This document shows positions 26,286-26,390 of a stretch of 64,000 nt of DNA, piece by piece. The DNA is from Escherichia coli. Its GTDB lineage: Bacteria; Pseudomonadota; Gammaproteobacteria; Enterobacterales; Enterobacteriaceae. The notes beneath the pieces are model-generated. The model ran no database searches. It was not told the origin of the DNA and worked only from the letters and a program-made list of their open reading frames with translations. The stretch lies in NCBI RefSeq assembly GCF_003334335.1, contig NZ_QOWQ01000020.1; one strand, 5' to 3'. The position numbers and the translations under genes were made by a program. Numbering within the stretch: position 1 is the first letter of the stretch; every line of letters starts with the position of its first letter.

Positions 26286-26390
26286 GCCGGATGCGATGCT
26301 GACGCATCTTATCCAGCCTACAGAACGCTGCAATTTATTGAATTTGCACGATCATGTAGGCCGGATAAGGCGTTTACGCCGCATCCGGCA
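26286..26390. repeat. BIME: two inverted REP units between convergent aslA and aslB
   Basis: gccggatgcgatgctgacgcatcttatccagcctac and inverted gtaggccggataaggcgtttacgccgcatccggca. Confidence 0.8.

Follow-up and report, generated by a model that had tools for sequence, protein, structure and literature searches.

The 158-bp spacer between the convergent genes aslA and aslB of Escherichia coli carries an inverted pair of REP sequences that is almost certainly a copy of the BIME-1 element of E. coli, a family that also goes by the names RIP and RIB and, in the newer terminology, REPIN. From the comparison of this site among E. coli genomes and other Escherichia lineages, we consider it fairly probable that the 84-bp interior of the element, located between 12-nt repeats, was flipped once in Escherichia history, that both orientations coexist in E. 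coli and each gave its own collapsed single hairpin, and that the same REP arm was the crossover point of a single ancient 1.58-kb deletion; this deletion would explain the absence of aslA in about a third of sequenced E. coli, an absence that would consequently be a loss. The element and its class are already known and the sequence feature itself adds nothing new; it is an ordinary feature, with a modest side interest in the population history of the site.

Architecture of the aslA-aslB spacer

The DNA is that of E. coli K-12: in a megablast search, a 901-bp query around the site was 100% identical to MG1655 and to further K-12 records. The window (the whole stretch of 64,000 nucleotides that was analyzed) is the reverse complement of NC_000913.3, in which the element is found at approximately 3,984,219-3,984,323. 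The NC_000913.3 record used shows zero repeat features across 50 kb, and therefore the missing annotation at the aslA-aslB spacer means nothing. The features of the locus, in window coordinates, are the following.

24602-26257, + strand: aslA (arylsulfatase), 551 codons, from the ORF list and from annotated RefSeq records of K-12 with identical sequence; the 3' end of the gene is turned towards the element
24709-24745, + strand: REP-like stretch in aslA, CTTTGCCGGATACGAT-N12-TATC, codons ~37-48; left deletion end point
26258-26415, unstranded: convergent aslA/aslB spacer, 158 bp
26284-26295, + strand: left terminal inverted repeat TTGCCGGATGCG, complementary to 26380-26391 at 12/12 positions; proposed limit of the inverted segment
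26286-26321, + strand: REP#1, GCCGGATGCGATGCTGACGCATCTTATCCAGCCTAC, the complement of a REP, ending in CCTAC (CTAC tail)
26303-26308, + strand: CGCATC, direct repeat of 26380-26385; end points of a 77-bp collapse (851 genomes)
26310-26313, + strand: TATC, right microhomology of the 1.58-kb aslA deletion; its partner is TATC 24737-24740
26322-26355, + strand: linker AGAACGCTGCAATTTATTGAATTTGCACGATCAT, 34 bp, L-type, quasi-palindrome
26331-26343, - strand: IHF-like core ATTCAATAAATTG, 12/13 to the consensus WATCAANNNNTTR
26356-26390, + strand: REP#2, GTAGGCCGGATAAGGCGTTTACGCCGCATCCGGCA, with a 5' GTAG head
26380-26391, + strand: right terminal inverted repeat CGCATCCGGCAA, from a repeat search; perfect 12-nt pairing with 26284-26295
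26400-26415, + strand: AGGCGGCCGCCGATTTC, remnant of the intrinsic terminator of aslA; the intact form found elsewhere, hairpin AGGCGGCCACAAAATGGCCGC plus T-run, is 9 nt longer
26416-27651, - strand: aslB (anaerobic sulfatase maturase), 411 codons, from the annotation of identical K-12 records

The two REPs are placed in opposite orientation, tail to tail, with the CTAC and GTAG tails facing the linker. They are of different types: REP#2 has the common GGCGTTTACGCC loop and a two-base AA/GC stem mismatch, and REP#1 the longer GATGCTGAC loop and one stem mismatch, an A at 26315 that represents a G-to-A change. An earlier note on this DNA had described a BIME between convergent aslA and aslB, a description borne out by the sequence, the REP hallmarks and the annotation of the K-12 records, and had placed its two opposite REP units at 26286-26390, coordinates that are exact to the base. 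The separation of ~35 bp given there is approximately right, the linker being 34 nt, and the statement that the REPs fill the spacer is likewise an approximation, given that the element covers 105-108 of the 158 bp, about two thirds. This single pair, with no tandem array, is the only one in the spacer; it is extragenic and lies at the 3' end of both transcription units. The small RNA gene glmZ, situated between hemY and aslA, is located just upstream of aslA on the opposite strand (~23650-23830; NC_000913.3 3,986,432-3,986,603).

In a pattern search of the window that allowed up to 3 mismatches, three REP#2-like and two REP#1-like sequences were found, and the linker occurred once at the mismatch limit used; the expectation from dinucleotide-preserving shuffles was 0.00 in each case. 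Folding of the 108-nt unit predicts a single long hairpin of -59.7 kcal/mol, compared with -28.2 +/- 3.3 for shuffled sequences (z = -9.5), and folding of the whole spacer gave z = -6.2 on either strand, with hairpins on both strands. Covariation of the hairpin across nine copies revealed a compensatory change in only 1 of 30 pairs, and this test is uninformative because the nine copies are too similar.

Assignment to BIME-1

Descriptions of BIME-1 elements go back to the early 1990s, and the BIME-1/RIP/RIB class is reportedly due to Gilson, Bachellier and Hofnung, to Boccard and Prentki (1993) and to Oppenheim et al. (1993); REPINs and the RAYT/TnpA_REP transposases are said to have been introduced by Bertels and Rainey (2011), Nunvar (2010) and Ton-Hoang (2012). 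The two arms of the element are presumably of the y and z1 types. The MG1655 genome has 355 annotated REP elements (PMC4550694). A BIME-1 consists of a single y/z1 REP pair with a long, well-conserved L linker, often with an IHF site (PMC3333891, Ton-Hoang et al.; PMC1187871), and a BIME-2 of y/z2 pairs repeated in tandem, the linkers being of the short S and s/l/r types (PMC3333891). In the aslA-aslB spacer we found inverted REPs with the REP hallmarks, a conserved long L linker, a single copy and an extragenic 3' position, as in BIME-1; the array and short linkers of BIME-2 were not observed, there being one pair with a long L linker. The ends of the doublet pair into one long hairpin, as is characteristic of REPINs. 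When 6 nt of the tail of each REP are included (26316-26361), the linker has a median of 4 matching places per E. coli genome (E <= 1e-3). The earlier note's refuting case, a REP consensus that would be missing on realignment, is excluded by the presence of the L motif and the REP hallmarks.

The TnpA_REP protein requires the GTAG tetranucleotide and a two-base stem mismatch (PMC8266576); both are visible in the two arms, with one extra stem mismatch in REP#1. No RAYT/TnpA_REP gene was found in the window, and the orthologous retention of the element across Escherichia species, described below, argues against its recent movement.

IHF is tied to the BIME-1 class (PMC3333891). The linker has no exact match to the strict IHF consensus and matches it at one mismatch; window-wide, the consensus with one mismatch is not enriched (51 matches versus 48 expected), and for this reason the IHF assignment rests on family membership and not on the motif. 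The main text of the IHF ChIP paper nowhere mentions REP, BIME or RIP.

Further REP copies are present in the window. A second BIME-1-like element at 10343-10450 comprises a REP, an L linker and a degenerate REP with a TAGG head instead of GTAGG. Its 16-nt linker core is identical to that of the aslA-aslB linker, with an identical 13-mer ATTCAATAAATTG at 10388-10400, and the orientation of the linker relative to the arm types is opposite in the two elements. Single REP copies were observed at 47874-47909, which shares the unusual GATGCTGAC loop of REP#1 and has a degenerate CCTTG tail, and at 2166-2200.

Alleles of the site in E. coli

A spread sample of matches to the site revealed several spacer lengths and a class without most of aslA, and representatives of these were aligned. 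The alleles were then counted in 5,426 complete E. coli genomes by megablast, with queries of 46-48 nt that had a diagnostic junction at their centre and of which neither half alone can seed a match; since this collection over-represents clinical lineages, the counts are not population frequencies. The K-12-type REP#1/linker junction was found in 2,197 genomes, the aslA deletion junction in 1,712 (all with at least 99% identity), a collapsed single hairpin in 851, and a different left flank with a canonical REP in 643. These four classes add up to 5,403 genomes, and 23 of the 5,426 are unclassified.

The collapsed form present in 851 genomes corresponds to the K-12-orientation element minus the 77 bp between the CGCATC repeats at 26303-26308 and 26380-26385, which leaves the perfect hairpin TTGCCGGATGCG-ATGCTGA-CGCATCCG. 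The 643-genome class has the left flank of the flipped lineage, as in the full flipped form, which a separate query found intact in 49 E. coli genomes (for instance EC42405), and the inspected members of the class (L005 and L010) are a 74-bp collapse of the flipped form between ATCCGGC direct repeats. The collapse to a single hairpin results from the loss of the segment between two short direct repeats, one in each arm. According to the folding predictions, every E. coli allele class retains at least one strong hairpin.

Two general statements of the earlier note can now be made specific for this site. REP number does vary between strains, as is evident in the 5,426 genomes, and the REPs, which had been said to nucleate rearrangements, act as rearrangement end points; the comparison of the junction among E. 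coli genomes that was proposed there yields the K-12 form, the aslA deletion, the collapse and the flipped-lineage classes. We propose that the palindromic arms make the site fragile; in different lineages the element has collapsed, has provided one end of the aslA deletion and was probably inverted as a whole.

Orientation of the element in other Escherichia lineages

A 20-mer of the intact aslA terminator gave no match in a search of the genome contigs; the lineages other than E. coli were found with a degenerate pattern for the AslA C-terminus in a collection with one genome per species. This pattern recovered E. albertii, E. whittamii, Escherichia sp. E1V33, and the strains E69 and SCPM-O-B-8794, both named E. 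coli and present as separate entries in this collection. In these five lineages aslA and aslB are 89-93% identical to those of K-12, and the REP pair is present at the same boundaries in all five. In E. albertii, E. whittamii and E69, the 84-nt interior agrees with the reverse-complemented K-12 sequence at 76-77 of 84 positions, and in direct orientation at only 60-63 of 84. The interior of E1V33 has the direct K-12 orientation (79/84). In all the K-12-orientation alleles, including that of E1V33, the left flank is shortened by 9 bp, a common feature that speaks for a single origin. The terminal inverted repeats provide identical element boundaries in both orientations, and an empty site was not seen among the sampled alleles or in the other species.

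Two of these lineages show further peculiarities. In SCPM-O-B-8794 the REPs are in the flipped arrangement, separated by a 21-bp linker, TGGACAACAATGTGGTGTTCT, which bears no relation to the L motif and lacks an IHF-like core. In E1V33 the tails are mutated (CCGAC instead of CCTAC, and CCAGG instead of GTAGG); such tails would be unrecognisable to TnpA_REP, and the element looks like a decaying, immobile copy.

The divergence of the interior is similar to that of the flanking genes, the boundaries and the right flank are the same, and no empty site is seen. From this we infer that the element was inherited vertically and that it predates E. coli, as an old resident of the spacer already in E. 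albertii, and that a single inversion probably occurred in place between the inverted arms, which could have taken place by recombination or by replication template switching. The flipped orientation is probably the ancestral one because it is present in E. albertii. An alternative that we regard as rather unlikely is that the two orientations result from loss and independent re-insertion of a mobile REPIN, or from ectopic conversion from another copy. REPINs are thought to be mobilised by RAYT/TnpA_REP (PMC3337134, PMC3333891), and the change in orientation is accompanied by the 9-bp difference in the left flank. However, the boundaries of both orientations coincide, lying in one and the same pair of 12-nt terminal repeats, the right flank does not differ, the reverse-complemented interiors are 90-92% identical, a value that equals the divergence of the flanking genes and includes the unusual GATGCTGAC arm, and no empty site was observed in the alleles and species sampled. 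As a control, the BIME-1 locus at 10343-10450 was searched for a flipped allele, and none was detected among the 5,426 genomes; hence flipping is not a general, frequent property of these elements. Flipping is rare and not routine.

Loss of aslA

The deletion that characterizes 1,712 of the genomes joins TATC 24737-24740 to TATC 26310-26313, which lies in the 3' arm of REP#1; with the additional loss of 5 nt (26316-26320), it removes 1,578 bp in total. It runs from approximately codon 47 of aslA into REP#1; the linker, REP#2 and the terminator remain, and glmZ is untouched. Full-length aslA is present in all five of the other Escherichia lineages, and accordingly the absence of aslA is a loss. 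In one study aslA was described as "acquired" by invasive isolates (PMC11879602); the present data indicate aslA loss, contrary to that reading. Where aslA is scored as a virulence or invasion marker, its absence would therefore reflect one ancestral deletion ending in REP#1, and the 48-nt deletion junction provides a clean marker of aslA loss. A separate case is strain TUM13773, in which aslA is annotated as frameshifted and the spacer has the collapsed hairpin; this frameshift is a second, independent route to aslA loss.

On its left side the deletion ends in a part of aslA (24709-24745) that is similar to REP#1. When it is aligned in register with REP#1 and its left flank, 15 of 16 positions are identical and TATC is found at the same +28 offset, and this stretch can form a REP-like hairpin; among 500 codon shuffles, a single one reached an identity of 15/16 to REP#1. 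The stretch is ordinary coding sequence, and the sequence that specifies this peptide in other Escherichia species is less REP-like. We take the likeness between aslA and REP#1 to be a coincidence that could have helped mispairing. Two other interpretations were considered and rejected. The insertion of a REP into aslA was discarded because the block encodes a conserved peptide and is less REP-like in other species, and a simple homologous deletion between the 15/16 block and REP#1 was discarded because the product keeps 12 aslA-specific bases past the block.

Terminator remnant and proposed role of the element

In strain JCC-EE 7 the canonical aslA terminator, AGGCGGCCACAAAATGGCCGC followed by a T-run, is found just after the element. 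According to the alignment of representatives, the 9-nt shortening destroys this hairpin in K-12. The shortening also creates GCGGCCGC, a NotI site, at 26402-26409. The short terminator form is shared by E. whittamii and 1,464 of the 5,426 E. coli genomes, a distribution that suggests that it is either old or recurrent. In K-12, no promoter-like or terminator-like site was predicted between 26000 and 26700, and the element itself has no G+C-rich hairpin followed by a T-run of the kind that defines an intrinsic terminator. With the intrinsic terminator of aslA lost in K-12, no strong structure other than the BIME remains in that strain between aslA and aslB.

By analogy with other members of the family, the linker would be a likely IHF bending site on the DNA. 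On the aslA (rightward) or aslB (leftward) transcript the element would form very stable stem-loops or one long 3' hairpin, and such 3' structures could protect the mRNA upstream of them against 3' exonucleases and reduce read-through into the opposing gene. The roles suggested by family membership are thus the binding of IHF to the linker, protection of the 3' ends of the aslA and aslB mRNAs, and attenuation of read-through. The intact two-REP form is missing in ~59% of the genomes, and for this reason the full doublet is probably not under strong selection at this site.

Other roles can be weighed against this proposal. The element could be mainly a bidirectional transcription terminator of aslA and aslB, its REP identity being incidental; it does form very stable hairpins on both strands, it is placed at the 3' ends of both genes, and the K-12 spacer has no other terminator-like site, but the hairpin is not followed by a U-tract on either strand, a separate canonical aslA terminator is found just downstream in most strains, and the element belongs to a dispersed repeat family instead of being a locus-specific structure, all of which makes this role improbable. 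The earlier note had called the element a typical gyrase/IHF-binding BIME; the BIME identity and the IHF-type class stand, but gyrase cleavage is documented for BIME-2, and two subfamilies were merged in that description. A gyrase-type BIME-2 that would act as a strong, transcription-independent cleavage site and organise local supercoiling between the convergent genes is in fact very doubtful here. REPs generally bind gyrase, BIMEs are cited as gyrase targets (PMC6379681), and convergent transcription would accumulate positive supercoils at this point; nevertheless, the preferential cleavage in vivo revealed by Topo-seq enrichment concerns BIME-2 and not BIME-1 (PMC6379681), and the tandem y/z2 pairs and short S linkers that define BIME-2 (PMC3333891) are replaced here by a single pair and a long L linker. 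The least probable role, one to which we give hardly any weight, is that of encoding a small RNA derived from a REP, similar to naRNA4 or ES036. Transcription has been reported for many REPs (PMC4550694), and sub-threshold Rfam matches were obtained for naRNA4 on REP#2 (42.9 bits) and for ES036 on the linker (30 bits); however, these do not reach the gathering scores of 59.5 (naRNA4, RF02564) and 37.6 (ES036), they simply reflect the common REP/BIME sequence, and the 26000-26700 region is without a promoter-like site. BIME-1 membership, with the roles suggested by the family, is the assignment that we retain.

Comparison with known elements

BIME-1 regions are enriched in strain-variable segments (PMC1187871). 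In the accessible literature we found neither an inversion of a whole doublet at an orthologous site nor the exact aslA deletion junction and its link to REP#1. Within one 158-bp spacer, the fragility of a REP doublet is apparent as inversion, central collapse and a gene-removing deletion, each rearrangement being a fixed junction common to hundreds to thousands of genomes.

The element is similar to the described BIME-1/RIP/RIB elements in its inverted tail-to-tail pair, its conserved L linker of ~34 bp, its IHF-type core and its size (~105-140 bp); nothing essential is different, apart from the slight degeneration of REP#1 here by the G-to-A change in the stem. It has in common with BIME-2 that it is built from REPs, extragenic and polymorphic between strains, whereas BIME-2 elements are tandem arrays with short S/l/r/s linkers, have no IHF linker and are gyrase-enriched, in contrast with the single pair and L linker of the aslA-aslB site. 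The stem-loop sequence common to REPs is also found in naRNA4 (Rfam RF02564, REP325 cluster); nonetheless, REP325 is a six-unit Y-l-Z2 array (PMC4550694), and the element described here scores below the naRNA4 gathering threshold. As in REPINs, the REP doublet folds into one long hairpin, but unlike them the aslA-aslB element has no sign of recent mobility and would have been at its site since before the split of E. coli and E. albertii. In Pseudomonas fluorescens SBW25, long palindromic REP singlets are doublets that have undergone central excision (PMC3337134), and the collapsed alleles of the aslA-aslB site, that is, the 851-genome class and most of the 643-genome class, resemble these singlets.
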